A stretch of DNA of 52,936 nucleotides from Escherichia phage vB_EcoM_PiR. Where the stretch lies: sequence record OM313461, one strand, 5' to 3'. The position numbers were made by a program, and so were the translations under genes. The notes under the pieces were generated by a model that saw only the letters and a program-made list of their open reading frames with translations, was not told the origin of the DNA and did not search any database. This document shows positions 3,019-52,610 of the stretch, piece after piece; the stretch's first letter is position 1; each line of letters begins with the position of its first letter.

Positions 3019-3047
3019 TTTACTTTCGGTTTACCTGGCTATATAAT
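3019..3047 (+). promoter_or_regulatory. sigma70-like promoter TTTACT-N17-TATAAT
   Basis: -35 TTTACT at 3019-3024, 17-bp spacer, -10 TATAAT at 3042-3047; leaves a ~143-nt GC-rich leader before 3191. Confidence 0.5.
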
Positions 3048-4934: not shown

Positions 4935-4963
4935 TTTACACGTATAAAGTTCTGGTATATAAT
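4935..4963 (+). promoter_or_regulatory. sigma70-like promoter TTTACA-N17-TATAAT
   Basis: -35 TTTACA 4935-4940, 17-bp spacer, -10 TATAAT 4958-4963; GGAGG SD and ATG at 4990 downstream. Confidence 0.65.
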
Positions 4964-5978: not shown

Positions 5979-6355
5979 TGCTCAAGATAACTTCGCTAAT
6001 GAAGGATAAAACCTTTGTAGCATTAACGGATGTTCTTCTCCGAAACGATTCGCGCTTACCAAATGGCGACTTCGAAGACGAATATACAGCTGCAAAGTAT
6101 CTGTGTAACATTCAACCTGGTGCAGCTACCAACCAGCCTAACCTGTTGACTAAAGACGATGGCGAGCATGAGTTCCCACGTATTGCGATATACAGTGGAC
6201 AAGAGCTGAAGCTCGGAGACTTCGTTATATACGAAGACCAACCATACCGTGTATTCCGTATCGACCCATGGAGTCGTCATGGCCACTACTACGTTACAGC
6301 AATTCTCCATAAAGGACCTCAGGGAGCTCGTTCAGAAGCTTTTACCATTACCTGA
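5978..6355 (+). CDS. hypothetical head-tail region protein
   Basis: ATG 5978 with GGAGG SD. Confidence 0.5.
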   Translation: MLKITSLMKDKTFVALTDVLLRNDSRLPNGDFEDEYTAAKYLCNIQPGAATNQPNLLTKDDGEHEFPRIAIYSGQELKLGDFVIYEDQPYRVFRIDPWSRHGHYYVTAILHKGPQGARSEAFTIT

Positions 6356-6806
6356 CGGGACATGTATTATTGGTGAAGAGTCTGGTACAGTCGATGGTAG
6401 TCCGTATGTTTACATGCGCCCTGGCGACGCATATGACTTCGGACCTCCTCGAACCAAACAAGGCGCTGACGGCTTTGAGTACGTCAGTAAACCTATGATG
6501 ACATCTGTACGTATTACAGCTGTCGGTAAGAATGCTGCTGAGTTAATGCGTAAGCTACATATAGCACTGGGTAGCTCACCAGCTAAGCAGTTTAACCGTT
6601 TACGGCATTATGCAATAACCAAAATATCGAAGATTGATAATGTCGGTGGTGCTATTGGTGCAGGCTATGCGCAGAAATCAATGATGACTGTCGACATTAG
6701 CTATGTACATAAAGTTAAAATTGAGCAACCGTACATCTACAAGGTTGACATCACTTGTATGGATGATAACGGTAACAAAGCGACTGGTACAGTAGAGGAA
6801 CCGTAA
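6279..6806 (+). CDS. hypothetical head-tail region protein (start uncertain: 6279 or 6414)
   Basis: ATG 6279 preceded by GGAG; overlaps upstream ORF by 77 nt, alternative ATG 6414 in same frame. Confidence 0.45.
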   Translation: MATTTLQQFSIKDLRELVQKLLPLPDGTCIIGEESGTVDGSPYVYMRPGDAYDFGPPRTKQGADGFEYVSKPMMTSVRITAVGKNAAELMRKLHIALGSSPAKQFNRLRHYAITKISKIDNVGGAIGAGYAQKSMMTVDISYVHKVKIEQPYIYKVDITCMDDNGNKATGTVEEP

Positions 6807-7429
6807 TGGCAACTGAAGTAGACCCGGAACTGCAAGCGCAGCTGGATAAGCTAACAACTGCTGTCCAGCTTATTCATGACTTCGGTATGTCAGACGACTC
6901 AAGCATCCCTAACCCGGAAGGCGGTGTCATACGCACACTCGAAGGCATTAACGCTGCAATCAATGAAGCTATACCAAATTTTGAAAATGCTAACGAAGCT
7001 GCTATACAGGCGCGTGCTGCTCGTGATGCGGCTATTGCAGCCAAAGAAGCTGCAGAAACCGCAGCTGAACAGGCCACAGTATCTTCTACGTCAGCAATCT
7101 ATGAGTACGGCAACGTTGCAAGTGCAGCTACTGTAACTATACCTGCTGCATCTAAAACAATTGTCAGTCTTACTCTTAACCAGCCAAACACCGTAATTAA
7201 TATCGGTGGTGTATCTGACCCGTCTACTGTTGCGCGTCAGATTACTATTGCTATTAAGCAAGGCACTGGTTCTAACAAGGTGACTGCCTGGGATCCCAGA
7301 ATAAAATGGGCAAACAACAGAAAGCCCGTTCTGTCATTCCTTGTGGGTTACACAGATGTTGTTACGTTGCTTACATTTGACTCAGGAGCAACTTGGATGG
7401 GTTTCTTTAACGGTGGATGGATTAAATAA
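6806..7429 (+). CDS. hypothetical virion protein
   Basis: ATG 6806 overlapping upstream stop (TAATG); Ala-rich coiled N-terminal region. Confidence 0.5.
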   Translation: MATEVDPELQAQLDKLTTAVQLIHDFGMSDDSSIPNPEGGVIRTLEGINAAINEAIPNFENANEAAIQARAARDAAIAAKEAAETAAEQATVSSTSAIYEYGNVASAATVTIPAASKTIVSLTLNQPNTVINIGGVSDPSTVARQITIAIKQGTGSNKVTAWDPRIKWANNRKPVLSFLVGYTDVVTLLTFDSGATWMGFFNGGWIK

Positions 7430-10386
7430 TGCACACGATGTTGCTTAAAGACGGATCAGACCATCGAGCTAATGTCGAAAGCCTTATCGAAGGTCACCAC
7501 CACTTTCTTGAGCGCAATACTGGTAGAACTGACGACGCTACGCGTCAGCACTATATCTTCAACCCAGAAGGAGTAGTGTCGAACAACCGCCATTTTATTG
7601 CGCACACTATGATGGAGTACCAACCTAACGGTGATGCTCCGTCTGAAAGTCAGTCGCTGCTGATACTCGGCGAAATTCACGCGTACCTTGCTACTAAGGA
7701 ACAGCGGTATCTGGACAAAGCAATTGAGTACTTCAATGCTTACGTCAAATACTATTACGAGGGTGACCCAATCCCTGATACTCCTCGTCGCTGGATCGCT
7801 AACTGGCTTTGTAATGGCAAAGAGCCTGTGCTAGCCAGCTTCCCGATCAACCCTGATTCACCAACACAGGGTGGATATAAAAATGTGCCAGTTAAATTTG
7901 TTAACGGCAAAGCACAAATCCCTCATGGTTCTCCTTTCTGGGGCGAGTACCTGGATGTTGCTACTTGGGCCCACAGGGGACACATGGCATGGCCTGCTAT
8001 TAATGGCGGGGTGCGTGTTATTAAAAATGAAGTTAACTGGGATGATATTTACAACAATTATCGCATCACTACCATGCCAGCTGACCCATGGAATCAGTTA
8101 GCCTGGATTGACTGGCCGAGGTACCTCGGTGAGCCAAGCTACACTGTGGACTGGTCTGCTGCTGAACCTCCTATACATCTCATCGAGTATATTGTTGCGT
8201 GGACCAATAACAAGATTGGTGTTCTACCTGGCAAAAACGATGAGCTATGGGGAGGCGAGATTCTTGAGACTGGACTGCCTGACTCTCGCAGGGGTGAGAT
8301 TCAGCTTCGTGACCATACTATCAATGGTGTGTACCTGCTTAACTATGCTGTTAAGCTTCCTGTTGAACACGGTGGTTATTTGCTCAAGCGAAATGAAGTA
8401 TGGCACAACAGACCTGTGAACGTTCCACTGTACGGCGAGCTTCAGCGCGGTAATGCTGCTGATGCTGAGTTGTGGTTCTGTGACTGCTGCTATATGCTGT
8501 GGCGAATTACTAACGAGCAAAAGTATTACAACGCTTGGCAAGCTGTCCTGTTTACACTGGAGGAGTATATTGACATCGATAAACAAGACCAGTTCTTCCG
8601 ACAAGACACTCACGCGTCGTCTCCGTTTACTGATGGCATCTCTTATGATTGGTCTTATCCTGAACTGGCACAAGCTATATATTCACGTGATGAAAATGGT
8701 TATATAGTTCTACGTCAGAACGAAAAAGCTCAATCATCTCTGGAGCAGCAGGCTGTATGGTTTAAGTGTAAGCCAACAGCTAAGATACGTACAGAAGTTG
8801 GTGGCAAAGATGATGCTGGTCAGAATATCAGTGTCAAGGTGGAAATGTACATGAACCGTGAAAAGGTTGACGTCGAGCAAAACATCTATCGTTTTGTCAC
8901 ACAGCTACCTGCTCTTGGCGCTTCGCCTGCTAACTACGACATTCCGTTAAGCGATTTTGTCGCAGGTACTAAGCCAGACGGTTCTGAGTATATCTTAGCT
9001 GATATTCGTTCATCCACTGATTATGGTAATGCCACTATTGCAGTGTCTTACCGTACTGACATACTCGACAACAGACGTGGCAACACTGTTCGTATGACGA
9101 TACCGGATAGTTCGTCAGGTGCCATTATAGGCTTTTGGCTACTGGAATCTTCCCAGGCACCTTTAAACTCGCTGACGTATACTTCTACAGGTCCGTTGTA
9201 CATCAAAGTAACTGACGCGCAAGGCTGGAGCTGGGTACGTGATTTACCTGCCGCATCAGGCTGGGTAACTCAGCAGATTCGTACATGGGAGTTCAGGCTG
9301 GCGTCATACCAGGAAAACCCAGGTACACCACCAGCTAGCCCACAATTCGGCGAGATTAAGCAGTTCTCGTTTGTACTGCCTGACGGCGTTAATACGTCGA
9401 CAAGTATTAGCTGGTACTGTGTGAATGATGTTCCGCCTCGCTATAACTGGCCAATTGGTTATACGATTAAGTATCGTCTTACTTTCTCGGCTGATAACCC
9501 GTACACAGCTAAGCTTGGCGACTGTACTGTGCTGGACTATGAGAATGATAACCTTGCTTACACGCCAGGTGTTATTCCGTTCTCCAACATTTATAACCCT
9601 GATTCTAAGCAGTTCGATGGTTGGCACGGTATACCTTACCCTGGCTATCAGTATCCGTTTGTCTTTACGCATGACGATACTGCAGCAGGTACAATCAGGC
9701 TGAACAACATGGTTAACTTTTTGTACGATTCTCAGCAATGGTACTATAAGAAGTTTGGTCAGCTAGGTCCTGGTGCATCTGCTTTTATCTGGAACCGTTG
9801 GGATAACTTTAAATACGGTGTACCTGATACGTTTACCATGTATCACTGGGGTAATGGTAGTGCATGGTCAGGTTACCAGCCTCGTGCTTATTTCTCCGCA
9901 GCACGTGGATGGTATGAGCTAGTAAACCGTGGTAAGCCGGTTCCGAGTAAGCTTATTGCTTACGTGGATAACTGGTCAAAATGGTTGCTTGACTTCATGG
10001 AAAGGTCAGGAGGTGTGTCACCTTCTAACTTCCCGCAAGAAGGTGTTGCTCTGCCAGTCCCTTCAGACTTCACAGGCCACATGTGTGGACTATGGCTTGC
10101 TGGTGCAGCTATGTCAGCCCTTTGTGGGTCAACAGTATCAGGACTTGATAAGCTGATGGATATGCTTGTCAATGAGCTAGAAGACCACTATGACATAACT
10201 GGTATTCCGGGACATGTAATGGATGGTGGTTGGTCGCCAGCGTTACGCCTTGAAACTGGTACCGGACCTGAAAGCAACGCCATGTACTATGGTTTTTACT
10301 CTGGCGAAATATTACGAGGGCTGGGGTTATACTTACTGTACAAAAACAAAGGGGCTAAAGCAGATATTTATGATTTAGGCCCGTAA
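7429..10386 (+). CDS. large virion-associated protein (985 aa), function unknown; possibly carbohydrate-active
   Basis: long uninterrupted ORF, Trp/Tyr-rich, located between head-completion genes and Ig-like proteins; no catalytic motif confidently recognised. Confidence 0.5.
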   Translation: MHTMLLKDGSDHRANVESLIEGHHHFLERNTGRTDDATRQHYIFNPEGVVSNNRHFIAHTMMEYQPNGDAPSESQSLLILGEIHAYLATKEQRYLDKAIEYFNAYVKYYYEGDPIPDTPRRWIANWLCNGKEPVLASFPINPDSPTQGGYKNVPVKFVNGKAQIPHGSPFWGEYLDVATWAHRGHMAWPAINGGVRVIKNEVNWDDIYNNYRITTMPADPWNQLAWIDWPRYLGEPSYTVDWSAAEPPIHLIEYIVAWTNNKIGVLPGKNDELWGGEILETGLPDSRRGEIQLRDHTINGVYLLNYAVKLPVEHGGYLLKRNEVWHNRPVNVPLYGELQRGNAADAELWFCDCCYMLWRITNEQKYYNAWQAVLFTLEEYIDIDKQDQFFRQDTHASSPFTDGISYDWSYPELAQAIYSRDENGYIVLRQNEKAQSSLEQQAVWFKCKPTAKIRTEVGGKDDAGQNISVKVEMYMNREKVDVEQNIYRFVTQLPALGASPANYDIPLSDFVAGTKPDGSEYILADIRSSTDYGNATIAVSYRTDILDNRRGNTVRMTIPDSSSGAIIGFWLLESSQAPLNSLTYTSTGPLYIKVTDAQGWSWVRDLPAASGWVTQQIRTWEFRLASYQENPGTPPASPQFGEIKQFSFVLPDGVNTSTSISWYCVNDVPPRYNWPIGYTIKYRLTFSADNPYTAKLGDCTVLDYENDNLAYTPGVIPFSNIYNPDSKQFDGWHGIPYPGYQYPFVFTHDDTAAGTIRLNNMVNFLYDSQQWYYKKFGQLGPGASAFIWNRWDNFKYGVPDTFTMYHWGNGSAWSGYQPRAYFSAARGWYELVNRGKPVPSKLIAYVDNWSKWLLDFMERSGGVSPSNFPQEGVALPVPSDFTGHMCGLWLAGAAMSALCGSTVSGLDKLMDMLVNELEDHYDITGIPGHVMDGGWSPALRLETGTGPESNAMYYGFYSGEILRGLGLYLLYKNKGAKADIYDLGP

Positions 10387-10392
10387 CCACTA

Positions 10393-10421
10393 TTTACTTA
10401 ACCGAGGCGCCAGCCTATAAT
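10393..10421 (+). promoter_or_regulatory. sigma70-like promoter TTTACT-N17-TATAAT with embedded inverted repeat
   Basis: -35 10393-10398, -10 10416-10421; 8-bp perfect inverted repeat GCGCCAGC (10407-10414) / GCTGGCGC (10424-10431) flanks the -10. Confidence 0.55.
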
Positions 10422-10453
10422 AAGCTGGCGCACCCAATAAGAGGATTCTCCAG

Positions 10454-11092
10454 ATGGCAAATCGTACTACAGCCAACCGTCATATTGAAGACGCAGACCT
10501 GCGTCAAGAGTCGGTTACTCAGTTCCCGTTAGCCAAGCCGACCAAGCTTGATGAGAACGGAAAATTCATTCCAACCCCAGTTACCGGTGTAACTGTTACC
10601 CCTAAAACTAAGTCAATTGCTGTTGGTGAGTTTACTACTCTGACAGCAGCAGTAGCCCCGGCAGACGCAGATGACGTCACCGTATTGTGGGAAAGCGATA
10701 CACCTGCTAATGCCACTGTTGATGGTTCAGGTCGTGTTCAGGGTATCAAAGTAGGTTCAGCAACTATTACTGCTAAATCCAAGCTTGACCCTGCCAAAAC
10801 CGATACCGTAGCAATTACGGTAACTGCTCCGCCTGTAGCCGTCACTGGTGTTACGTTAGCGCCTAAGTCGCCCAGCGTTGTAGTAGGCTCTACTGTACAG
10901 CTGACTGCAACTGTGCTGCCTGCTGGCGCTACTAACAAAGCTGTTACCTACGAGTCCAATGACACGGCTAAAGCTACTGTTAGCGCTACCGGTCTGGTGA
11001 CTGGTAAAGCAGCTGGCGTCGTCACCATCACTGTCAAAACAGCTGATGGCAGCTTCACTGACACCGCGTCAGTAACTGTTACTGCCGAGTAA
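10454..11092 (+). CDS. Ig-like (Big_2-type) domain protein
   Basis: tandem repeats of motif VTGVxxxPKxxS..GxTxQLTATVxPxxATNKxVTYES.D..xATV...G.VTG...G..TIT.KT.DG. Confidence 0.75.
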   Translation: MANRTTANRHIEDADLRQESVTQFPLAKPTKLDENGKFIPTPVTGVTVTPKTKSIAVGEFTTLTAAVAPADADDVTVLWESDTPANATVDGSGRVQGIKVGSATITAKSKLDPAKTDTVAITVTAPPVAVTGVTLAPKSPSVVVGSTVQLTATVLPAGATNKAVTYESNDTAKATVSATGLVTGKAAGVVTITVKTADGSFTDTASVTVTAE

Positions 11093-11103
11093 GGAGCTGA
11101 TTG

Positions 11104-13233
11104 ATGTCGCTTCCACTTGATGAGGTTGTCGACGTCCAGTTCAGTAAGAGCAACGGGGGTAAAGGTTTTACCCCCAATGTTCCGCTGGAAGGCATAATGC
11201 TTTACAACTACGAGTACTCAATCGTTGCGGATGATGACCCTGTTCAGCTAGCTGTGCTCTACATTCCAACCAACGCTACGGAGCGTGGTATGGTATGGGA
11301 ATCTAGCGACTCAGACGTTATCACCGTTGATGAGCTCGGATTTGCAAAGCCGCTGGCGGAAGGTGTTGCATACGTGACTGGTACGTCTGTTGATGGCGGT
11401 TATACTGTACGAGCAAAGTTCAATGTTGCTCGAGCACCTATCCTTGTTGAATCTGTTACAGTGTCTCCCACAAGCGTGACACTTGAAGAGGGTAAGACTC
11501 AACGTCTGACATACACCTATTTACCTGCTAATGCAGACAAACCTGATTTTTACTGGATTTCAGATGACGAGGCTGTTGCTGTCGTTAGTGACAGCGGGCT
11601 TGTCACTGCCATTCTAGACGGTGAAACAACTGTAAGCGTACAGTACGGTATTGACAGTACTATATCTGATAGCTGTATCGTAACTGTTATTCCACCTATT
11701 GTACACGTTACAGGAGTTGAGTTTCTTACTCAGTCACCTCTTAACATTAATATCGGAAGCACAACTGAGACGAGTATTCGTGTATCGCCAGAAGACGCCA
11801 CTGACAAAACAGTGACGTACGAAAGCAGTGCGACTGATGTAGTAACTGTAGATACTGACGGAAATGTTACGGGTGTTATAGCTGGCAATGCCACTATTAC
11901 TGTTAAGACGAATGATGGTGATAAGACTGACACTCTTGATATTATAGTCAAGGAGGCTGTCGTAAATGTTACCGGTGTAAGTATTGATGAAGGCGCTACA
12001 GCTTCTATGGAGGTTGGTGACACGCTTCAGCTACATGCCACTGTGACTCCTGAAAATGCTACTGACCCGTCTGTTGTATGGAGTGCTCCTGTATCAGAAG
12101 TTGCGTCTGTGACTGAAGCTGGTTTGGTAACCGCTAACGCTGCAGGTTTAATTGATGTTACTGTTATCACTAATGATGGGAACTTTACTGATAGAATCGA
12201 GGTTAAAGTTACAGACCCCAGAATCGCAGTTACGGATGTTGCATGGGCTCCTGACTCTCCGACTAAAGTAAGACATGGCCATCAGGTGCAAACTAAAATT
12301 GTTATAACACCTGAAAAAGCAACCAATAAAAAAGTCAGTTACAACAGCTCAAACCCAGACGCTGTTACTGTTGACACTGATGGAGTTATATACGGTCAAT
12401 CTCCTGGAACTTCAACTATTACAGTTACAACAGACGACGGTGGACTTACTGCTTCGTTTATAGCTACTTGCACAGAAGTGGCTGTTATTACACCTGACGG
12501 TCTTGGCGGTATTCCAATCGGTGGCACCCAGCAGTTCACTTATACTGTTAGCCCGTCTGATGCTGAGCTAACTGATATTCGTTACGAATCTGCTAACCCA
12601 GCTATTGCAACTGTTGATTCGTCTGGCGTTGTAACTGGTGTTGCTAGCGGCGGATGTAATATCTGGATTTACGCAACTAGTAATGGTGCGGACATTAGCT
12701 CAGCTACTTGGGCACAAATTTCTGAGAGGGTTCAGGTATACCCGCAGTATGCTGAATGGCTTGTGGGTAACAACAAACAGCTTGATGTTGAGATTTATCC
12801 ATCGGACTCTAAGAGCGTTACCGTTACTTATAGCTCGTCAGATGATTCTGTAATTAGCATAGATGCAAATGGCTTGATGACTGCTAAGTCTGAAGGTTCA
12901 GCAACTATTACTGCTAACGTTGTAATGAACGGTGTTGCTGCTTCTGGTACAACATCTCCTTACGTGTCTGAGCTTTCTGTTACTACTGATTCGCTGCCTG
13001 CACTTACTGTTGGCAACACGCAGCAGCTGGTTGTAACTGTTAGACCTGAATACGCTAAGACAGACCCAGGCTATAACATTCAGTATACAACTACAGACGA
13101 TACTGTCGCTACTGTAAGTAATACCGGTGTTATTACTGGCGTTGGTAACGGTGGATGCCGTATTGGTGCCACAGTAACTGTGAGAAATGCTACAGCGTCG
13201 GACAGCTCTTATCAGTCCGTCGATGCAGCATAA
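11104..13233 (+). CDS. multi-repeat Ig-like (Big_2-type) domain protein
   Basis: about 7 repeats of the same Ig-like motif; track start 11101 is TTG, ATG at 11104. Confidence 0.75.
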   Translation: MSLPLDEVVDVQFSKSNGGKGFTPNVPLEGIMLYNYEYSIVADDDPVQLAVLYIPTNATERGMVWESSDSDVITVDELGFAKPLAEGVAYVTGTSVDGGYTVRAKFNVARAPILVESVTVSPTSVTLEEGKTQRLTYTYLPANADKPDFYWISDDEAVAVVSDSGLVTAILDGETTVSVQYGIDSTISDSCIVTVIPPIVHVTGVEFLTQSPLNINIGSTTETSIRVSPEDATDKTVTYESSATDVVTVDTDGNVTGVIAGNATITVKTNDGDKTDTLDIIVKEAVVNVTGVSIDEGATASMEVGDTLQLHATVTPENATDPSVVWSAPVSEVASVTEAGLVTANAAGLIDVTVITNDGNFTDRIEVKVTDPRIAVTDVAWAPDSPTKVRHGHQVQTKIVITPEKATNKKVSYNSSNPDAVTVDTDGVIYGQSPGTSTITVTTDDGGLTASFIATCTEVAVITPDGLGGIPIGGTQQFTYTVSPSDAELTDIRYESANPAIATVDSSGVVTGVASGGCNIWIYATSNGADISSATWAQISERVQVYPQYAEWLVGNNKQLDVEIYPSDSKSVTVTYSSSDDSVISIDANGLMTAKSEGSATITANVVMNGVAASGTTSPYVSELSVTTDSLPALTVGNTQQLVVTVRPEYAKTDPGYNIQYTTTDDTVATVSNTGVITGVGNGGCRIGATVTVRNATASDSSYQSVDAA

Positions 13234-13258
13234 AAATTAATTAACTTTGCCTCGGCCA

Positions 13259-13287
13259 TTTACTTGGTTAAACTTACTGAGTATAAT
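13259..13287 (+). promoter_or_regulatory. sigma70-like promoter TTTACT-N17-TATAAT
   Basis: -35 13259-13264, -10 13282-13287; inverted repeat CGGCCATT (13253-13260) / AATGGCCG (13285-13292) overlaps both hexamers; AAGAGG SD before ATG 13320. Confidence 0.6.
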
Positions 13288-13319
13288 GGCCGGAAAGTCC
13301 ACCCAAGAGGTAAACAAAA

Positions 13320-14459
13320 ATGCCGTTGAATGTAAACCAGATTGTAAACGTTCAACTGAACAACACTCCAACTGGTATCAGCAAAGGTGACTTCGGTAAG
13401 CTGGCTCTTTTAACTCAGGACCCTGGCACTGCTTTTCCTGACAGCGACAACGGACACTATGTTGAAATCGGCAGCTACTCTGAAGCCGAGTCTTATTGGG
13501 GTGCTGGTTCAGTTGTGCTTGGCGCGTTGAAGATTTTCTTTGCACAATCTCCGCGTCCTCGTTCAGTAGTTATCGCCTCATGGAACAACACCTCTACTCT
13601 GGATGCGGCTATTAAAGCATTCAACGATGTGTACCCTGACTGGTATGTTCTGCGTCCGCTTCCACCTACTGGTGAGCTGTCTGACGATGACATCAGTTTG
13701 CTGGCGTCAACTGTTGCTGCTTACGATAAAAAACGTTGCAGCTATACAACCACTAAAGCAACTCATATTGAAAACAGCGACTCCAACCCGATTAAAGTTC
13801 TGGCTGGTAAAGGCTACAACAATATGTGGCTTCAGTATGATAAGAACAACCAACACTATGCAGACATTTCTGCTATGGCGCGTGCTCTGTCCGTTAACTT
13901 CTCTGGTAACCGCACCACGATTACCATGAAGTTCAAACAAGAGCCTGGCATTACACCGAACAACACTTTAACGCTTACTGAAGCTAACAAGTGTAAAGCG
14001 CTGGGTATTAACTGGTACACCTACTACAGCACCTTTGCTATGCTTGCTGAGGGTACTGTTCTCGGTACGTCCAAACCGCCTCGCTTCTGGGATGAAGTAC
14101 ACGGCCTAGACTGGTTCTGTAATGCAGTTCAGACTTACGTCTTCAACTCAATCGCTACGTCACCCACGAAGGTGCCGCAGACGAACAAAGGTCACGAGCG
14201 CCTTACCGGTGCTGCAGCTGTTGCTTGTCAGCAGGCTGTCGACAACGGCTTGGTTGCACCTGGTATCTGGTACGGTGATGAGTTTGGTACACTGTCTTAT
14301 GGTGACCGACTCGAGACAGGTTTCTACATCTACATCCCTGACGTAGATGACCAGCCTCTGGATGAGCGTGAAGCTCGTCAGGCCGTTGTAATGCAAATCG
14401 CGATTAAGCTGGCAGGTGCAATCCATTCCAGCGACATCCTGATTAACTTCACTCGCTAA
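13320..14459 (+). CDS. tail sheath protein (probable)
   Basis: 379-aa ORF followed by 143-aa tube-sized ORF, chaperone with frameshift and tape measure, the order seen in P2/Mu-type contractile tails. Confidence 0.5.
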   Translation: MPLNVNQIVNVQLNNTPTGISKGDFGKLALLTQDPGTAFPDSDNGHYVEIGSYSEAESYWGAGSVVLGALKIFFAQSPRPRSVVIASWNNTSTLDAAIKAFNDVYPDWYVLRPLPPTGELSDDDISLLASTVAAYDKKRCSYTTTKATHIENSDSNPIKVLAGKGYNNMWLQYDKNNQHYADISAMARALSVNFSGNRTTITMKFKQEPGITPNNTLTLTEANKCKALGINWYTYYSTFAMLAEGTVLGTSKPPRFWDEVHGLDWFCNAVQTYVFNSIATSPTKVPQTNKGHERLTGAAAVACQQAVDNGLVAPGIWYGDEFGTLSYGDRLETGFYIYIPDVDDQPLDEREARQAVVMQIAIKLAGAIHSSDILINFTR

Positions 14460-29508: not shown

Positions 29509-30393
29509 TTATACGGCCATTTGTAGTTTGATGTTTGGCATTGGTTTGTACTTCTCAACCATTGGCGTAACATCGGCAGGAGTGAAGTCAAACACTGACA
29601 CGTCGTAAATTGCGTTAATGTCAGGACGACCTTCAAAGTTAGTGTCCAGTGTAGTATCAGAATTGCTTACGATACGTTGCAGGAAAATCTTTGCAGCATC
29701 GATATGATTCTGATAGATGTGATAGTCACCCAGCGTAACAGTCATATCACCTACCCCAGTACCCAGCTCAGCAGCAATGGTAATCTGCAGCATTTGATGC
29801 AACAGAATATCGTGAGGCAGACCCAGAATAACATCCGCGCTACGCATGTGGAACATCAGCTCTAATTCATTGCGGTTGTTAATGAACAGCTGAAAACCAT
29901 GGTAACAAGGCGGAAGGGCCATGGCGTCCATCTCTTGTGGGTTCCATGCCGTAATGTATGCCCGGCGGTCAGTAGGCTTAACCTTCAGCGTTTCAATAAC
30001 ATCTTTAAGCTGGTTAGTAAGAACACCATTCTTGTAGAATGGCTTAATCCATTGCACGCCGTACACAGGACCTAAGTCACGGTTGTCTGGCGTACCCCAG
30101 CGTTTGTTTGCGTCCTGCAGGTTACCTTCCCACCAGTTGCAGCCAAAGCCTTTGAGCGTGTCGACGTTTGAAATACCGTTGATAAAGCAGTAAAGCTCAG
30201 CAGCAACAGCTTTGATGTTAACAGGTTTAAACACCGGCACCATCAGTTTGTTGTCGTTAAAAGCCAGCTTAAATGCTGTACCAAAACAACGGCGTGTACC
30301 AACACCTGTACGGTCTACAACATCCTCGCCTTTACGCAGGATAAAAGAAATGATGTCGCTGTAAAGAGAATCGACAGTGCTATATGTTTTCAT
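29509..30393 (-). CDS. thymidylate-synthase-fold enzyme, predicted dCMP-specific (dCMP hydroxymethylase or methylase)
   Basis: aligns to ThyA: DRTGxGT, DLGPVYG, catalytic Cys in ALPPCYHGFQ, RSxD, GDYHIYQNH; specificity Asn replaced by Asp in GLPHD. Confidence 0.8.
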   Translation of the reverse strand: MKTYSTVDSLYSDIISFILRKGEDVVDRTGVGTRRCFGTAFKLAFNDNKLMVPVFKPVNIKAVAAELYCFINGISNVDTLKGFGCNWWEGNLQDANKRWGTPDNRDLGPVYGVQWIKPFYKNGVLTNQLKDVIETLKVKPTDRRAYITAWNPQEMDAMALPPCYHGFQLFINNRNELELMFHMRSADVILGLPHDILLHQMLQITIAAELGTGVGDMTVTLGDYHIYQNHIDAAKIFLQRIVSNSDTTLDTNFEGRPDINAIYDVSVFDFTPADVTPMVEKYKPMPNIKLQMAV

Positions 30394-30986
30394 TAAAACA
30401 GTTCCTTTTGAGCCGGGTTAACGTGTGCGTCGATGATGGCCTGGATGTCAGGTGCTTTCCATCCTTCAGGCTTAACAATATCCTGACCAGACTTATGCTT
30501 ACTGTTGCTTGCATCAGGCTTAGCACGTTCTTTCGCCATGTTAGCAACTTGTACCGCATCCCATGCTGCGTCGAGTGGCCAGTTGTTGTTTGCACACCAG
30601 GTAATCAGGTGGATAATTAACTGGGCCAGACGGTCGCAATGAGTGTCTTCAGTATCCTTAACGTATACAATAAGGCCGTCAGCATCGAAGCGGTCCATAA
30701 ATCCGCATGGCGTAGTTAACAGAATCGGATACTCAAATTCGTTGGTGAACCATGCAGTCTGGTCATACAGATATAACGTACCTGCAGCAATGTAAATTAA
30801 ATCTACAATACCGTCTAAGAATCCAGCTTTATCGCCGTCCTTCTTAGCTTGTTTAATTTCTTCCATCTCCTCAATAAGACGGTCATAGCGAAGCTTGAAC
30901 TCAGGTTTACCGCCTTGACTAACAGGCTTGAGGTCAAACTTCTCATGAAAAGCGGTAACGCCTGCAGCAATTTTACTGAATCGCAT
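30393..30986 (-). CDS. MazG-like nucleoside triphosphate pyrophosphohydrolase (probable)
   Basis: EEMEEI ... DGIVDLIYIA acidic helix motifs typical of all-alpha NTP pyrophosphatases; TAATG overlap with TS-like gene. Confidence 0.5.
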   Translation of the reverse strand: MRFSKIAAGVTAFHEKFDLKPVSQGGKPEFKLRYDRLIEEMEEIKQAKKDGDKAGFLDGIVDLIYIAAGTLYLYDQTAWFTNEFEYPILLTTPCGFMDRFDADGLIVYVKDTEDTHCDRLAQLIIHLITWCANNNWPLDAAWDAVQVANMAKERAKPDASNSKHKSGQDIVKPEGWKAPDIQAIIDAHVNPAQKELF

Positions 30987-31371
30987 TTCGTAACTCCTTA
31001 CAAACAGTTTCGATAAACTTACGCTTAATTTCTGTAGACCAGATAATATGACGAGCCTGTTCTAAAGTGTCCCAACGTTCTTTACCCACAGGAAAGGGAA
31101 CAATGAAAAGGCCGGTACGGGATATGCGCTTGATAAACGGGAATTTACAGCGCATGGTTGTTTCAAACTTGATAAAGTTGGTTTGCACTTCGCGTGTAAA
31201 CTTGACCTTATCAAATTCATGTTCAAGAGTTTGAGCAAGGTTGCATACTTCCTGGAAAGAAGATGTGGGTAAATAATCTTCGCGGCCGACGGTGTTCACG
31301 TAGTCGATTTGGCCTTCGAGTCGAAGTATCCAAATCCTGTAATAAGCTTCAGCAACACGTTGTAGGTTCAT
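30973..31371 (-). CDS. hypothetical protein
   Basis: ATG 31371 with GAGGAGAG SD. Confidence 0.55.
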   Translation of the reverse strand: MNLQRVAEAYYRIWILRLEGQIDYVNTVGREDYLPTSSFQEVCNLAQTLEHEFDKVKFTREVQTNFIKFETTMRCKFPFIKRISRTGLFIVPFPVGKERWDTLEQARHIIWSTEIKRKFIETVCKELRNAIQ

Positions 31372-31397
31372 TGTATCTCTCCTCTAAAAGATAACTT

Positions 31398-31426
31398 ATT
31401 ATACCACATCACTCTCTAGTGGTAAA
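31398..31426 (-). promoter_or_regulatory. sigma70-like promoter TTTACC-N17-TATAAT (minus strand)
   Basis: reverse complement of 31421-31426 is TTTACC and of 31398-31403 is TATAAT, 17-bp spacer. Confidence 0.55.
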
Positions 31427-31445
31427 GCACTTTTTATGCTTCGGG

Positions 31446-31477
31446 TAAAAATAAAAAGGACCAGCGTTAACTGGTCC
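31446..31477 (-). terminator. rho-independent terminator
   Basis: stem GGACCAG/CTGGTCC (31458-31464/31471-31477), 6-nt loop; on minus strand followed by UUUUUAUUUUU. Confidence 0.7.
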
Positions 31478-31739
31478 TTTTGGCAGGGTGGCGTAAGGAG
31501 ATACAAGGAATCGCAGTTATGCAACCAGGCAGCGCATATGAGATTGGCTAAAGGACTGACCGACTTAATCCCCGCGACGAGTCGAAAGGAGGTACCATCA
31601 AGTAGCCAATCACATATGCGTTACTTGCTGTGTGCTCTTACCACAGAAAGTATATAGCGTTACACTTATCACACAGTTGTAGTGGCAAAAGCACACAGCA
31701 AGTACAACCTTAGTTGTGGTGTCTTAGCACCTGAGTTAT

Positions 31740-31748
31740 TGTGGATAA
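31740..31748 (-). promoter_or_regulatory. perfect DnaA box TTATCCACA
   Basis: reverse complement of 31740-31748 is TTATCCACA; lies in 565-bp non-coding region between 12-bp inverted repeats TAGTTGTGGTGT (31711-31722 / 31784-31795). Confidence 0.5.
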
Positions 31749-32047
31749 CCTGCACCCGACGGGTGTCAAAAAGATACGCCAAAACACCACAACTAAAATT
31801 GTGACCGCCGTCTACACCAGGCGCCTGGGGTCAAGGTAGCGAGCCAATACCCTTTTCAGCGTCGGAGGAATCGAACCTCACACATCACGGCTTTTACCAA
31901 ATCTCGGTCAGCGAGCAGAATTGAACTGCATTCACTGGACACCCTCACTGTTTCAACACACCAGGCTTAATTGATTGTTGATAAGAAGAGAGATGTAAGG
32001 ATGTCCATTGAATGCACCTCCGTAGAGGTGCGTTCAGATCAGCGCTA

Positions 32048-41943: not shown

Positions 41944-44452
41944 TATTCTCGGTCTGAAATACTTTAAGCCAGAAGGGATTCCCCAAGTCTTCAAAGATAT
42001 GAAGCGCTGGGCTATCTTTGAGCTGACGTACGAAGACGAGACTCTCGAAGTTCAATCCAAACCTAAGAAACCTGCAAGAGCGCCATCAGGCCGTTCCTTC
42101 AGCACAACTGTGCCTGAAGAGTGGATGACTTTCGACGACGCCCTGTCACGTTGTATTCGCAATCGTGAAATGAAGATTAAAGCTGTACAGGGGAATATCA
42201 CCTTTGTGCCGGCTTTGGTTGTTCCTCGCCAGTGGTACTTTGTTGACCTGGACAACCATGAAGATAACCCAGACATTGAAGCTACCCACAAAGCGATAAT
42301 TGAAGGGACTCGTGGTGCTTATGCCGAGACGTCAATCTCTGGCAAAGGGCAACACATTGCAATCCCTTTACCCTGGACTGCAGCAACATCTAAAGAGAAA
42401 GACGAACAACTGGACATCAAAATCCAGAAGGCTGAGATGTTCCTGGTAATGACAGGCAATGTATTGAGTGAGTTCAATGCTAATCCTGTTTCAGCCCGTG
42501 AATGGCATGCAGCAATTGAGAAGTTCTTTCTTGAATCAAGCGCACCTGATATTGATGTTGAGTTTGAGCAAGACGAAGACCGTGGCGAAGAGTATGACAA
42601 AGAGCTGTACGAACAGCTAGCCGACAATACTCGCTGGGCGCTTGAGCACTATCTTAGCGACTACGCACCAGACGGTGTTGGTGTGAGTAATGACGGTTCT
42701 GAACGTTTAAGCCGTATCTTAAAAGACTTGCTTCGTGTAACCCGTAACTATGAAGTTACACAACGCATCTTCATGGCCAGCAAAGCTGCAGCATACGAAG
42801 GTCGTCGTGCAAGTCGACATAGTTTGTCTGTTGACAAGTACCATCAGTGGTTCAGTCGTGTTGGTAAGACTGTGCTGAAAGAGATGCAACGTGATGGCTT
42901 ATTCGTCAAGACCAAGTTTGCTCTTGACATCAACAAAGAGTTAACCAAGAATTCTGGGGTGTCACTGGCTGAGAACGTTGAGTTCAAAGTCAACGACGAT
43001 ATTCTGCCATCTGACGTATTTGTCAGAACGGCCCCGTCCGGGTTTAAACGGCTTATTGCTGAGATACAGGATAACATATCTCCGGCTAACAGGGTTAACG
43101 ACTATGCAATTGGCACAGCTCTTAACATCCTGAGCAACTGCGCCGGTCGTAAGTATGTTTGTCCAGTAGGCGGTCATGCTAACTTCCTGGTAACCAACAT
43201 CATTCTTGTGGGTGGTTCATCAATCGGTAAATCGTTGTATACCGAGATGTTCCCACAAATCCAGGCAAGTTTACCTGACACATCGCCTATCAGCCTTAAT
43301 CGGATTCCAAGGGAACAGACTTTTGCAACCAGGACGTTCGCTGAACTGATGGCTAACCCGTCATACCATTCAGTCCAGTTGTTCTACCCTGAATTTGGTC
43401 TGGCTTTAGGTTCTGGCTTACGCATGAATCCTAACAACCCTGACAACTTTCAGAAAGCTCTGATGGACGCTTCAACCAAGCGTAAGGTTGGCGGTATACT
43501 GACAGGTATCAAACGTGCTAATGCTGACAATGATGTCAAGACAGTAAGCGAACCATGCTACTCTATCCTGGGGGACTCAACTCAAGAGCTTATCCTTGAC
43601 AACACCCGGAAGCAAGACTTCTCAAGTGGCTTTTTGCCCCGCTTCCTGTTCATCCCGAACTATGAGCGAGCGGAGTTTGCCAAACCTGAGAAGGTAGGAC
43701 GTCGCCAGCAGATTCGCCGTACTCAATTCTCCAAAGAGCTGATTGAGAAACTGGAAGCAATCGCTTATGTGAATGCTATCCCGCCTAACGGTAAACTAAG
43801 GCACGACCCGATTCCTATTTACGACGAATCGGATGATGATGACTTCCTGTACGAATACCAGTGCAATATTAATGATATGCGCCAGTATTACAGGGATAAC
43901 GAAGTAGCATCTGCCTTTGTGGGCCGAATGGGCGAGTATGTATTCAATATAGCAGCACTGATTGGACTACTCGATAACTGGGATGCTCCTGTTATGACCA
44001 GGGACAACATCGAATGGGCTTACAAATATGTTCTTCGTTGTATAACCGCCTGGGTCAATAACACAAGCAGGATAGTCGCACCACCAACTACCAACGCCGA
44101 AGTAGTGGACGGCTTCCTAAAAGTCTACAGGGACATTTTGGCCCTTTACACCAAAAGAGGATGGTCTGGCATTGTCAAGCATTATCCCGAAGGTGTTGTA
44201 AGAAGTATCCGGGAAGAACACCTCCAGATGAATGGTTTAAGCATATATGCTATTCGTCAGTCTTTGAGCTGGTTTAAATCGAATTACGGTTTTAACATCA
44301 CAGCTAATAACAAAGTCATTGACGGTATGCTCCAGGATATGATTGACCAGGACTATTTAGCAGTACAAGTATATAAGCCCACAAGAGGCCGATCTGCTAA
44401 CATTTACTGCCTGACGGAGCGAGGATATGACACTGCTAAGAAGTTAAAATAA
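41918..44452 (+). CDS. DNA primase (primase-polymerase-type) fused to SF3/D5-like helicase
   Basis: N-terminal WYFVDLDNHED acidic motif (DxD-type); central Walker A VGGSSIGKS; 844 aa. Confidence 0.6.
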   Translation: MTMTSQPSDILGLKYFKPEGIPQVFKDMKRWAIFELTYEDETLEVQSKPKKPARAPSGRSFSTTVPEEWMTFDDALSRCIRNREMKIKAVQGNITFVPALVVPRQWYFVDLDNHEDNPDIEATHKAIIEGTRGAYAETSISGKGQHIAIPLPWTAATSKEKDEQLDIKIQKAEMFLVMTGNVLSEFNANPVSAREWHAAIEKFFLESSAPDIDVEFEQDEDRGEEYDKELYEQLADNTRWALEHYLSDYAPDGVGVSNDGSERLSRILKDLLRVTRNYEVTQRIFMASKAAAYEGRRASRHSLSVDKYHQWFSRVGKTVLKEMQRDGLFVKTKFALDINKELTKNSGVSLAENVEFKVNDDILPSDVFVRTAPSGFKRLIAEIQDNISPANRVNDYAIGTALNILSNCAGRKYVCPVGGHANFLVTNIILVGGSSIGKSLYTEMFPQIQASLPDTSPISLNRIPREQTFATRTFAELMANPSYHSVQLFYPEFGLALGSGLRMNPNNPDNFQKALMDASTKRKVGGILTGIKRANADNDVKTVSEPCYSILGDSTQELILDNTRKQDFSSGFLPRFLFIPNYERAEFAKPEKVGRRQQIRRTQFSKELIEKLEAIAYVNAIPPNGKLRHDPIPIYDESDDDDFLYEYQCNINDMRQYYRDNEVASAFVGRMGEYVFNIAALIGLLDNWDAPVMTRDNIEWAYKYVLRCITAWVNNTSRIVAPPTTNAEVVDGFLKVYRDILALYTKRGWSGIVKHYPEGVVRSIREEHLQMNGLSIYAIRQSLSWFKSNYGFNITANNKVIDGMLQDMIDQDYLAVQVYKPTRGRSANIYCLTERGYDTAKKLK

Positions 44453-44463
44453 GTAAGTAAATC

Positions 44464-44505
44464 AAGGGCTTGGGTAATTGTAAAAATCCTAAGCCCTTAT
44501 TTTTT
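44464..44505 (+). terminator. rho-independent terminator
   Basis: 11-bp stem AAGGGCTTGGG/CCTAAGCCCTT (one G-U), 13-nt loop, then ATTTTTT. Confidence 0.65.
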
Positions 44506-44619
44506 AAGCTTATTTTACAAACTGATTAATATTTAAACTATAATTAAATATATGGGCTCTAAGAGTATGATTTTATTACTCTTTTACAAATCATAATATA
44601 TGAGCTCCTTATAAAAGAT

Positions 44620-44835
44620 TAAGGGGGTAAAAAAGGGGGATACAAGAACCGGATAAAGGGGGTATATATTTATTTATTATTATTATTATTATTATATATT
44701 ATTAATTATATTAGAAGTAATAAAAACAGCTACTTAGAGGCGTCTATATGTATGATCCGGTTTATCTCTTTATTAATATCAGAACCGGATGAAAAAAATT
44801 TACGCTGGTGAAAAAAATAAAAAAGCCGGATTGAT
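44620..44835. repeat. AT-rich iteron cluster (putative replication origin)
   Basis: three AAGGGGG(T/A) copies (44620-44665), ACCGGAT-type motif four times in both orientations (44647, 44753, 44782, 44825), (ATT)n microsatellite 44671-44695. Confidence 0.5.
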
Positions 44836-44852
44836 AAATAAATCTGTAGACG

Positions 44853-44881
44853 TTTACACTGTAAAAAAGATGTGCTACAAT
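44853..44881 (+). promoter_or_regulatory. sigma70-like promoter TTTACA-N17-TACAAT with extended -10 TG
   Basis: -35 44853-44858, TGCTACAAT at 44873-44881. Confidence 0.6.
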
Positions 44882-44935
44882 ATTTATCAATGTTGCTGAT
44901 TACCAAAACTTTGAATTGTATACGAGGCTGAATAA

Positions 44936-45367
44936 ATGGTTAATATAAGACAGAAAGGACAGAACTTTGAGCGTAAAATGGCTAAGAAGTTTAATAGCTC
45001 GTTCGGATTAACTGTTGAGCGCAATCTTCAACAGTCTATTAATGGCGGGGATGACTTGTTGGGTGTGCCGTTTTTCAGCGTTGAACTGAAGAAGCACAAG
45101 ACCAAGTCTATCGGAACATGGTGGAGACAGTGTGCGGCATCGGCAAAGGCTCAGAACAAGATGCCAGTGCTTATATACGAACTACCAAGAAAACAGCCTA
45201 CCGTGGTGATGAATAAGGCTGATGTGATTGACTGTTTTCCAAGTGGCACGACTTTTAACGAGGCATCGAACCGCCTCTTTGTGGGTTTAGTAGAATTAAC
45301 ATGGGAACAATTTTGCCGGGTCTACAACTATTACGTTGCGCCCGGCACTCAATATCACGTCAATTAA
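44936..45367 (+). CDS. hypothetical protein, possibly a small nuclease/resolvase-like protein
   Basis: 143 aa basic protein with GAGG SD; function guess is weak. Confidence 0.5.
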   Translation: MVNIRQKGQNFERKMAKKFNSSFGLTVERNLQQSINGGDDLLGVPFFSVELKKHKTKSIGTWWRQCAASAKAQNKMPVLIYELPRKQPTVVMNKADVIDCFPSGTTFNEASNRLFVGLVELTWEQFCRVYNYYVAPGTQYHVN

Positions 45368-47511: not shown

Positions 47512-48048
47512 TTACTCTTCAGTTTCTTGGGTTTCAGGTTTTTGACCAGTTACTGACTTGCCATCAGTCACTTTACCAGATTTTACATCATTCCGGTAGT
47601 ATGACATATATGACTGGATAACTCTTTTGGCTTTGATGTCATCCGCCTCCATCCCACAGGCTTTCATGGCATCAACTAGGGCCAGTTTGGAATCTTCTTT
47701 ATCCATCAGGTTGTAATCTTTGAACACCAGATAACAAGTATCTTTTGTTGATGGACCAGATGACTTCCGGGCCCCACCATTGGAAGATCTTGATGCCACA
47801 ACTTTGACCTCTTCAACTTCCAGTTGGTTCAGTTCATCAAACAATGCCTTGACCAACACTTCTTTGGAGTCCTTGACACTTACAGTACTTTCATCATTAA
47901 GGGACTTAATCATCTTAATGATCTGGTTGTTGGCAAAGTACTGAAGACTATCCATCTGCACTACAATAGTCCCAAGACTTTCAGTAGTCAGACCAGATTT
48001 TACAGACTCAACAGAAAAGGCGGAAGTCAGGTAAACATAGTTAGTCAT
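47512..48048 (-). CDS. hypothetical early protein
   Basis: start re-assigned to ATG 48048 with GAGGA SD. Confidence 0.55.
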   Translation of the reverse strand: MTNYVYLTSAFSVESVKSGLTTESLGTIVVQMDSLQYFANNQIIKMIKSLNDESTVSVKDSKEVLVKALFDELNQLEVEEVKVVASRSSNGGARKSSGPSTKDTCYLVFKDYNLMDKEDSKLALVDAMKACGMEADDIKAKRVIQSYMSYYRNDVKSGKVTDGKSVTGQKPETQETEE

Positions 48049-48143
48049 TGATGTATCCTCATTGATAGAATTTTTGATAAGTGTCAATCCTTGACAAGTA
48101 AGTCCAATCATGAGGACTTTTACCAAGTCCCCATTGTTGGAAA

Positions 48144-48317
48144 TTACTTCAACTTATCCAGAATTGATTGGAGTAACTTGACCCTCACTTCCTGGTCTTT
48201 GACATCCCTTCCACTCTCCCTGTCATATTCCAACAGGTCACTTTCCATAAATAAAGTAGTGTCCAATTGGTCAACCAATAATTCCAGTTCTTCTTGGGAC
48301 AATTCTAAAACTTTCAT
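48144..48317 (-). CDS. small early protein, paralog family member 3
   Basis: ATG 48317 after CAGGAG; N-terminus MKVLELSQEELELLVDQLD. Confidence 0.55.
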   Translation of the reverse strand: MKVLELSQEELELLVDQLDTTLFMESDLLEYDRESGRDVKDQEVRVKLLQSILDKLK

Positions 48318-48321
48318 CTTA

Positions 48322-48468
48322 TTACTCCTGATATTTAATAACTTGGGATTGGATAAAGTCAACACAATCTTCCACATCCATTGACTCAAAGTCTGGAACT
48401 GGACCATTGTTTATATTGACACACCAAAGCCCTTCATTGGTATCATACCAAAGTGTGTAGTTGTCCAT
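48322..48468 (-). CDS. small early protein (first gene of AT-rich block)
   Basis: ATG 48468 after AGAGGTG; track start 48525 is GTG. Confidence 0.5.
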   Translation of the reverse strand: MDNYTLWYDTNEGLWCVNINNGPVPDFESMDVEDCVDFIQSQVIKYQE

Positions 48469-52581: not shown

Positions 52582-52610
52582 TTTACTTACTTCGCGTAAC
52601 TCGTTATAAT
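52582..52610 (+). promoter_or_regulatory. sigma70-like promoter TTTACT-N17-TATAAT
   Basis: -35 52582-52587, -10 52605-52610; ACCGGAT-type motifs at 52469-52475 and 52617-52623 nearby. Confidence 0.6.

Follow-up and report, generated by a model that had tools for sequence, protein, structure and literature searches.

We describe a portable tail cassette in a 52,936-bp stretch of DNA from Escherichia phage vB_EcoM_PiR (OM313461), a Rosemountvirus (BP63-like myophage); this whole stretch is referred to below as the window. At 7429-13233 the window carries the genes of a 985-aa protein and of two immunoglobulin (Ig)-like repeat proteins of 212 and 709 aa. We find that the 985-aa gene and the 207-aa gene immediately upstream of it form a portable cassette, probably an adaptor-plus-enzyme tail appendage. 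A fuller reading, in which this cassette brings a glycan-cleaving enzyme to the tail, cellulose serves as the first receptor and the Ig genes stand apart, has in our judgement about an even chance of being correct. It draws on the open reading frames (ORFs), the fold of the large protein, the gene pairing, the presence of homologs in virions and the cellulose dependence of two carriers.

Part of this picture was already known, in that the cassette is a widespread, annotated tail appendage. The Ig genes stand apart from it as a unit confined to this clade. What is added here is the adaptor rule, a fold resembling glycoside hydrolase (GH) family 48 with inserts that resemble carbohydrate-binding modules (CBMs), and the coincidence of the cassette with two cellulose-dependence phenotypes.

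The two-gene cassette and its probable adaptor

Judged by its sequence, the 985-aa protein is a member of the phi92 gp141 / PHROG 2871 tail protein family. It matches phrog_2871 (‘tail protein’) with 1423 bits over residues 3-980, and the genome annotation of phage S144 equates the ortholog with phi92 gp141. Large proteins of the phi92 gp140/gp141 family are 29-82% identical to it over the full length, with E values down to 0. A word-indexed search returned 309 homologs, mostly at 45-50% identity over the full length and including prophages of Acinetobacter, Pseudomonas and Brenneria, and 532 of 50,697 deposited phage genomes carry one. These carriers comprise rV5-like and phi92-like phages, Seoulvirus and other jumbo phages, Kolesnikvirus, Rosemountvirus, and phages of Yersinia, Aeromonas and Vibrio; among the rV5-like, phi92-like, Seoulvirus, Kolesnikvirus and Rosemountvirus carriers are some that serve, or have been suggested, for biocontrol. 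An exhaustive profile search delineated a closed family of 371 representative clusters, and the 150 proteins listed from that search show no obvious tie to a known glycoside-hydrolase family. Pfam and NCBIfam hold no family for either the 207-aa or the 985-aa protein.

The original prediction described a Trp/Tyr-rich protein of unknown function. The composition is as stated, with 3.7% Trp and 6.5% Tyr against 1.6% and 3.6% in the long plus-strand ORFs of the window, about a twofold excess. The function was less obscure: a glycosidase label for phi92 gp141 dates back to 2012 (a 2017 review gives ‘glycosidase’, credited to Schwarzer et al. 2012), and BASEL annotates an rV5-like ortholog (the Bas48_0024/0025 pair) as ‘lateral tail fiber protein with glycosidase domains’. 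For the S144 ortholog, HHpred gave its describers a hydrolase hint and no spike-like or fibre-like model (PMC7432712). The proposal that the protein is a virion component is backed by mass spectrometry of homologs. S144 virions contain gp16, gp17 (25 peptides) and gp18 (PMC7432712), and both gp42 and gp43 were found in rV5 virions (PMC3606486), their assignment here being by gene order and sizes.

The left border first drawn for this region, at 7429, leaves out the 207-aa gene, with which the 985-aa gene is obligately paired. We compared six unrelated contexts, namely the window, a P2/HP1-like Pseudomonas prophage, a siphophage with queuosine-pathway genes, an SU10/GP4-like podophage, Vequintavirus CarlMeissner and the phi92-like phage alia. 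In all six, a small protein with a conserved C-terminal domain is encoded immediately upstream of the large gene. This C-domain comprises ~110 aa with the motif QGTGxNKVTWPxxIKW...PVLS...D..TL...G.TW.G, while the N-terminal part varies. A survey of 79 IMG/VR loci encoding a 985-aa homolog reveals the C-domain gene directly upstream, on the same strand and with an end that reaches or overlaps the large gene’s start, in 65 cases. The other 14 consist of 11 loci with an N-terminally extended enzyme and three contigs cut off upstream; ten of the 11 extended enzymes have 1097 aa, and P0063, the ENA representative of this form, bears a Tail_P2_I baseplate domain. The rule therefore holds at 65/65 informative loci, from myo-, sipho- and podophages. 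The small gene is absent exactly where the enzyme has an N-terminal extension of its own, which argues that the 207-aa protein is the attachment adaptor of the 985-aa protein.

Structural comparisons agree with such a role. In the model of the 207-aa protein, helices at the N-terminus and a long coiled-coil helix lead into a well-predicted beta-sandwich. The best structural matches of this model are a tailspike depolymerase, the N-terminal anchoring region of CBA120 TSP4, a proximal long-tail-fibre subunit and the Pa223 capsid spike, the last in agreement with the 2026 phi92 cryo-electron microscopy (cryo-EM) paper on gp140 (PMC13450770). A PDB sequence search with the 207-aa protein gave no match. 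The rV5-type partner protein carries a Tail_spike_N domain, and distant homologs of the 985-aa protein are found fused to the Gp77 fibre-tail adaptor, NCTSP, Prophage_tail, Phage-tail_3 and collagen repeats, all of them tail-periphery contexts. The adaptor C-domain resembles the anchoring domains of adaptor-plus-tailspike or adaptor-plus-fibre systems, such as the N-terminal XD domains of CBA120 TSP4; K1E/K1-5/SP6 gp37-type adaptors and T4 gp9/gp10-type attachment domains are close systems of the same kind. The pairs phi92 gp140/gp141, rV5 gp43/gp42, Bas48_0024/0025, S144 gp16/gp17 and phiEa21-4 gp71/gp72 all include this small upstream protein and its conserved C-domain.

Fold, candidate active site and place on the virion

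An AlphaFold2 model of the 985-aa protein, built from a 52-sequence alignment, reached a predicted local distance difference test score (pLDDT) of 89 and a predicted template-modelling score (pTM) of 0.85. It reveals a split (alpha/alpha)6 barrel of twelve long helices, with a beta-rich insert at ~120-340 and two CBM-like beta-sandwich domains at ~400-705. Foldseek returned GH48 enzymes and beta-glucan-binding CBM11 with probability 1.0; a beta-1,4-glucan cellobiohydrolase, accompanied by a beta-glucan CBM, clearly outranks the other structural matches. The original prediction had suggested an enzymatic component that structure prediction could check, and the predicted fold is indeed that of a carbohydrate-active enzyme, an (alpha/alpha)6 barrel with CBM-like inserts.

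Membership in GH48 itself finds no support in sequence. The Pfam GH48 model (PF02011) matches neither the 985-aa protein at E<=0.1 nor any of 37 family members at E<=5, while phage S6 gp094, the positive control, gives 1.5e-198 on that model. In hhalign, the 985-aa family profile aligned to this bona fide phage GH48, either in full or trimmed to the barrel, with a probability of 0.3-0.8%. Because the fold matches while Pfam and the profile comparison fail, we regard the protein as GH48-like in its predicted fold, and not as a GH48. Searches for other enzyme families returned little: a member-wise Pfam scan of the family gave sub-threshold, scattered matches to GH47, GH76 and GH127 only, and PDB sequence searches with the 985-aa protein and the 52-sequence profile found nothing beyond a GH76 helix (E 0.04). 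The segments APSE73SQSLL and NAADAE resemble SVSE155TASFW and NAPDAEV around E155 and D334 of S6 gp094, a likeness that is anecdotal; the alignment is not significant.

The (alpha/alpha)6 barrel is common to the 985-aa protein and the GH48 cellobiohydrolases (B. pumilus 5bv9, C. thermocellum CelS; S6 gp094). However, significant sequence similarity is absent, and the barrel is broken by two large beta inserts that fell outside the GH48 alignment. Enzymes of clan GH-M and other (alpha/alpha)6 enzymes (GH8 including BcsZ-type endoglucanases, GH76, GH88, GH105) are single-domain proteins of 300-400 aa, and to these the 985-aa family shows sub-threshold sequence signal only. In contrast to beta-helix tailspike depolymerases, the 985-aa protein has no trimeric right-handed parallel beta-helix body. 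We also considered whether it might be the BASEL ‘sugar deacetylase lateral tail fibre’ common with N4 gp64; BLASTP found no similarity, and the N4-like deacetylase is therefore a different Vequintavirus protein.

In (alpha/alpha)6 folds the catalytic residues lie at helix starts. Across 37 sequences of the 985-aa family, down to 32% identity, D69, E73, D345, E347, D596, E960, several Arg and many Trp are invariant (37/37), and the model places E73 and D345/E347 at helix starts. We therefore note D69/E73 and D345/E347 as candidate catalytic residues on the basis of the model.

We note that the CBM-like beta-sandwich is also found outside this protein. In Erwinia Kolesnikvirus M7, the tail protein gp040 (30249-31757), encoded just upstream of the cassette, contains a copy of beta-sandwich residues 509-704 (tblastn E 3e-23), and PHROG 23426 and several short database proteins match only this beta-sandwich segment. 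The beta-sandwich is therefore a mobile module.

The genomic position of the cassette differs among carriers. In P2/HP1-like prophages it follows gpJ and gpI, in the siphophage a J-like tip protein, and in rV5-like and phi92-like phages a spike and a small protein (the sheath initiator in phi92), while in Kolesnikvirus it closes the fibre locus. It follows neck/adaptor genes only in the Rosemountvirus/Loughboroughvirus clade and the SU10/GP4-like podophage. Whereas the phi92, rV5, BASEL and phiEa21-4 pairs lie within a baseplate/fibre locus, that of the window lies between neck and sheath genes with the Ig genes after it. The neck-sheath position is peculiar to the clade. The description of the region as an accessory-type insertion does not hold in the sense of a recent event in this lineage, given that at least 43 related genomes retain the entire block.

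This setting bears on whether the protein is an enzyme at all. Adjoining neck genes, the Rosemountvirus cassette could reside at the neck or collar, which speaks against a tail position there, and the 985-aa protein might be non-catalytic: a tail-fibre scaffold or branching hub, or in Rosemountvirus a neck or collar appendage, with the fold serving as a stable body or a lectin. We consider this unlikely. It would account for the lack of glycoside-hydrolase family membership at the sequence level, the very high conservation regardless of host and the place of the window’s cassette directly behind the neck genes, within their operon. In phi92 and rV5 the gene lies among several fibre genes, and phi92 fibre II joins the base of fibre I (PMC13450770); fusions of the C-terminus to tail modules (NCTSP, Gp77, Big_2) likewise suggest an attachment platform. 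However, invariant Asp/Glu pairs at helix N-termini together with many invariant aromatics look like an active site, and the CBM-like inserts point toward sugar binding. A branching hub would be unneeded in Rosemountvirus, which has just one other fibre, and in siphophage, podophage and P2-like contexts the cassette stands alone or closes the fibre locus.

Cellulose and other glycans as possible targets

Two carriers link the cassette to cellulose. In a TraDIS screen (transposon-directed sequencing of insertion sites), bcs genes (yhjL, N, Q, R, S, U) were required for infection by Rosemountvirus SPLA2, for which the authors name cellulose as receptor (PMC10949491); the SPLA2 enzyme differs from that of the window at 13 of 985 residues (98.7% identity). 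M7 has likewise been reported as cellulose-dependent (PMC13101476), and it has both genes of the cassette, gp041 with a match to the adaptor C-domain (E 8e-33) and gp042 with a score of 1504 bits. A precedent for cellulose as first receptor is the N4-like Erwinia phage S6, which carries a tail-associated GH48 (gp094) and a verified GH5 cellulase. A tblastn search of the window, the SPLA2 structural region and the complete M7 genome brought up no relative of either S6 enzyme, and Rosemountvirus and Kolesnikvirus are absent among the 30 phage records with a GH48 match. With its GH48-like barrel and CBM11-like domains, the 985-aa protein is thus the candidate best suited to be the device by which SPLA2 and M7 engage cellulose. 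If it is that device, it provides a molecular basis for two published cellulose-dependence phenotypes. The Rousset 2018 and Acinetobacter StAb3 papers, taken up as possible further cases of cellulose-dependent carriers, proved irrelevant to the 985-aa family.

From these observations we infer how the cassette may operate. The variable N-terminal part of the adaptor would dock on the phage’s own tail, and its conserved C-terminal beta-sandwich would hold the 985-aa protein, whose (alpha/alpha)6 barrel with built-in CBM-like beta-sandwiches would bind, and probably cleave, a glycan. On the virion, the enzyme would engage a host-surface exopolysaccharide, most likely bacterial (phosphoethanolamine-)cellulose, in a first, reversible receptor step in which it may either clear the glycan or track along it. 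The Mu-gpS-like fibre encoded further downstream (a homolog of S144 ORF31) would then contact lipopolysaccharide (LPS).

Several observations weigh against cellulose as the target, or against enzymatic activity. Neither GH48 nor any other glycoside-hydrolase family of Pfam or NCBIfam gives a significant sequence match to the 985-aa protein, and the glycosidase activity of the family is a prediction from the model. E. coli K-12 makes little cellulose. Vequintavirinae (rV5-like) and phi92-like carriers need wecB, a gene of enterobacterial common antigen (ECA), on K-12 (PMC8594841). In the same screen as SPLA2, the Rosemountvirus SPLA11, with an enzyme that is 96.9% identical to that of SPLA2 and differs from it at 31 positions (W221A and W620S among them), gave LPS genes and LPS mutants rather than cellulose genes (PMC10949491), and the cellulose dependence of SPLA2 could instead come from its Ig array (eight domains versus seven in SPLA11) or from a tail fibre. 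In addition, distant homologs sit in Prophage_tail-type prophage tail proteins, whose hosts need not make cellulose. The Prophage_tail type is associated with Gram-positive hosts.

These points would be explained if the protein were a glycanase or binding module directed at another conserved target (ECA, LPS core, poly-N-acetylglucosamine (PNAG) or NGR-like polymers, colanic acid) or at targets specific to each subfamily, the cellulose link in SPLA2 and M7 then being a coincidence or another protein’s doing. We regard this as improbable, but as a stronger competitor than a non-catalytic role. Besides the ECA and SPLA11 results and the distant prophage homologs, it fits the selection of LPS mutants by Seoulvirus SPLA1a and SPLA5c (another Seoulvirus genome has a 47% identical homolog) and the diversity of (alpha/alpha)6 substrates, which include unsaturated uronides (GH88/GH105), mannan (GH76), and chitosan and xylan (GH8). 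Pulling the other way, the top structural match combines a beta-1,4-glucan cellobiohydrolase with a beta-glucan CBM, the cassette is common to two unrelated cellulose-dependent myophages, and M7 and the window are without classical cellulases. In fact, 42-50% identity across hosts with differing O-antigens and capsules fits a chemically invariant polymer.

The cassette may also bear on phi92 itself. The 2026 cryo-EM study left fibre II without a gene, having tried gp15, gp140, gp150 and gp151 as lone fibres, and nowhere mentions gp141 (PMC13450770). We propose the gp140-gp141 complex as a candidate for this fibre; the gp141 ortholog in phage alia has 958 aa (locus 8513-11862). Broader still, and in our view somewhat doubtful, is the notion that the gp140/gp141 cassette founds an uncurated GH family of virion-borne, cellulose-directed, CBM-bearing (alpha/alpha)6 enzymes with a universal adaptor, which would explain SPLA2 and M7 and would likely constitute phi92 fibre II. 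If so, bacterial cellulose would be in widespread use as a first receptor, by many phages of Gammaproteobacteria. If the 985-aa protein is the cellulose-engaging device, one would predict that susceptibility to many therapeutic phages is governed by biofilm-matrix cellulose and its control by cyclic di-GMP, and the adaptor-plus-enzyme pair would be a portable unit for engineering anti-biofilm phages. If it is not, the region holds a correctly spotted, already annotated tail protein beside Ig decoration genes.

Ig-repeat genes, promoters and genomic setting

The three ORFs of the original prediction (985, 212 and 709/710 aa) exist as described, all on the plus strand, and lie as claimed ahead of the sheath gene, between it and the neck/tail-terminator gene (Table 1). 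In BP63 and the window alike, the order is terminase, portal, scaffold, capsid, four neck genes, the 207-aa gene (labelled ‘tail fiber protein’), the 985-aa gene (‘tail protein’), the 212-aa gene (‘structural protein with Ig domain’) and the 709-aa gene (‘major tail protein’), followed by sheath, tube, tape measure, baseplate and a Mu-gpS-like fibre.

Table 1. Genes and promoter-like sites of the window discussed in the text
Feature	Position	Strand	Remarks
TTTACW-N17-TATAAT site	3019-3047	+	Ahead of scaffold/capsid block
TTTACW-N17-TATAAT site	4935-4963	+	Ahead of neck block
Neck/tail-terminator gene	6249-6806		PF23961
207-aa gene, putative adaptor	6806..7429	+	Ortholog of phi92 gp140, rV5 gp43, S144 gp16
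985-aa gene, predicted tail-appendage enzyme	7429..10386	+	Ortholog of phi92 gp141, rV5 gp42, S144 gp17
Promoter-like site TTTACT-N17-TATAAT	10393..10421	+	Ahead of Ig genes; promoter annotated at same place in BP63 and S144
212-aa virion protein gene	10454..11092	+	~40-aa N-terminal anchor, then 2 Big_2 (Pfam, own hidden Markov model)
709-aa protein gene (710 aa if start is 11101)	11104..13233	+	8 tandem Big_2 make up almost all of the protein
TTTACW-N17-TATAAT site	13259-13287	+	Ahead of sheath gene
DUF3383 sheath gene	13320-14459
TTTACW-N17-TATAAT site	52582-52610	+	Near window end

Domains of the Ig proteins were counted with Pfam Big_2 (PF02368; cut-off 22.8 bits) and with a hidden Markov model (HMM) made from the window’s own repeats. 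The 212-aa protein matches Big_2 in two stretches (1.9e-34, 117.9 bits) and has two domains by our own HMM, the number first given. The longer protein is a Big_2 array as predicted (7.8e-95, 311.4 bits), with the domain count revised from about seven to eight, as eight stretches match Pfam and eight domains over residues 26-707 match our HMM. The count is not constant among relatives: SE13-like, S144-like and SPLA11 genomes have seven domains (622-630 aa), as opposed to eight in the window and SPLA2, and in one metagenomic relative the short protein has a single domain (145 aa; 10019-10456). We ruled out a frameshift fusion of the 212-aa and 709-aa genes, there being a TGA directly upstream in the 709-aa frame.

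The short protein is abundant on virions of S144, whose ortholog gp18 was detected with 17 peptides and 80% coverage, the highest in the virion mass spectrometry (PMC7432712). Of 55 phage records, 51 preserve its first 48 residues at above 90% conservation and all but one at above 80%, and this N-terminal segment has no match outside the clade. The conserved anchor, the promoter of consensus type and the 80% coverage of S144 gp18 all fit a high-copy decoration, and the 212-aa protein is probably such a protein, on capsid or tail, which would be held by its conserved N-terminal peptide. The 709-aa gene is the most divergent of the region, being 54% identical to its S144 homolog, which has one domain fewer, while neighbouring genes reach 71-96%; it is fast-evolving, with seven or eight domains among isolates. 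By analogy, this eight-domain array probably provides weak, multivalent glycan adhesion. Against a role on the virion, its homolog was not found among the S144 virion proteins in the mass-spectrometry table (PMC7432712).

PDB matches of the Ig proteins are generic Big_2: the lambda gpV C-domain, a Hoc-like protein (7x30_P) and a glucanase module. T4 Hoc, the C-terminal Big_2 of lambda gpV and Hoc-like ORF90 share the Big_2 likeness, which for Hoc-like capsid decoration extends only to the generic level of the Ig domain (7x30_P). The window’s Ig genes, in which domain number varies, differ from these in being free-standing rather than frameshift extensions of a structural protein, and in the clade-specific N-terminal anchor of the short, virion-abundant protein.

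The 985-aa and Ig proteins were originally taken as one unit. We find that the conserved unit is the 207-aa and 985-aa pair, which many unrelated phages have without Ig genes: these occur downstream of the cassette in only 5 of the 79 loci, all Rosemountvirus/Loughboroughvirus. That the three proteins nevertheless act as one cooperating accessory insertion, for example as an Ig-stalked enzyme on head or tail, is in our estimate very unlikely. The genes are adjacent on the same strand, S144 gp17 and gp18 are both virion proteins, and some enzyme homologs of ~1690 aa carry C-terminal Big_2 in the same polypeptide. Against this stand the promoter of the Ig genes, their absence downstream of the cassette in 74/79 loci, the very different rates of change (54% identity between genera for the 709-aa protein, 82% for the enzyme) and the upstream 207-aa gene as the true conserved partner. 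The ~1690-aa fusions were considered as a Rosetta-stone link between enzyme and Ig array and set aside as weak evidence, because their similarity to the 709-aa protein (33% identity) is that of generic Big_2.

Transcription signals divide the region in the same place. Exact copies of TTTACW-N17-TATAAT number five in the window, against zero expected by chance. Each stands ahead of a block of structural genes, and these are probably the strong host-type late promoters of the phage. The copy at 10393, ahead of the 212-aa gene, is the sole one in the region of the original prediction and has the same consensus as those ahead of the scaffold/capsid, neck and sheath blocks. In the whole-window scan the exact motif was not found ahead of the 985-aa gene, whose ATG overlaps the stop of the 207-aa gene (TAATG, 7427-7431), just as the 207-aa start overlaps the stop of the terminator gene (TAATG, 6804-6808); the 709-aa start follows the 212-aa stop after 11 nt. 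Thus, of the claim that each gene has its own promoter, the part concerning the 212-aa gene stands, and that concerning the TAATG-coupled 985-aa gene and the 709-aa gene does not. From promoter positions and the overlapping or near-adjacent gene ends, we deduce two transcription units: the first takes in the neck genes together with the 207-aa and 985-aa genes, the second the two Ig genes. We note that the -10 hexamer at 10393 falls within the loop between the arms of a GC-rich, perfect 8-bp inverted repeat (GCGCCAGC/GCTGGCGC, 10408-10431), and that a 6-bp inverted repeat, GGCCAT/ATGGCC, flanks the entire 13259 promoter (13253-13292); both might be regulatory or RNA-end structures.

Among relatives, 7429-13233 is 99.2% identical to Escherichia phage vB_EcoM_IntR (OM313460; 52,782 bp) and 95-96% identical to BP63, UPF_BP2, JEP7 and many other Salmonella and E. 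coli Rosemountvirus phages, and at least 80% of it is covered in 43 related genomes. JEP7 (MT764207) equals the window in length (52,936 bp) and gene coordinates, yet is 95.6% identical in this region. G+C content is low at 44001-45000 (0.35) and 48001-49000 (0.37), on the other side of the genome, compared with ~0.46 elsewhere. Several public labels are doubtful (OM313460, MN158218, PP583539, MG065652, MG065682): the 207-aa adaptor appears as a ‘diguanylate cyclase’, although Pfam finds no family and no GGDEF in it, and the 212-aa Ig protein as a ‘1,4-alpha-glucan branching enzyme’. One Rosemountvirus is deposited as a ‘Listeria phage’, and the rV5-type version of the module (~29% identity) sits in records deposited as ‘Campylobacter phage’.

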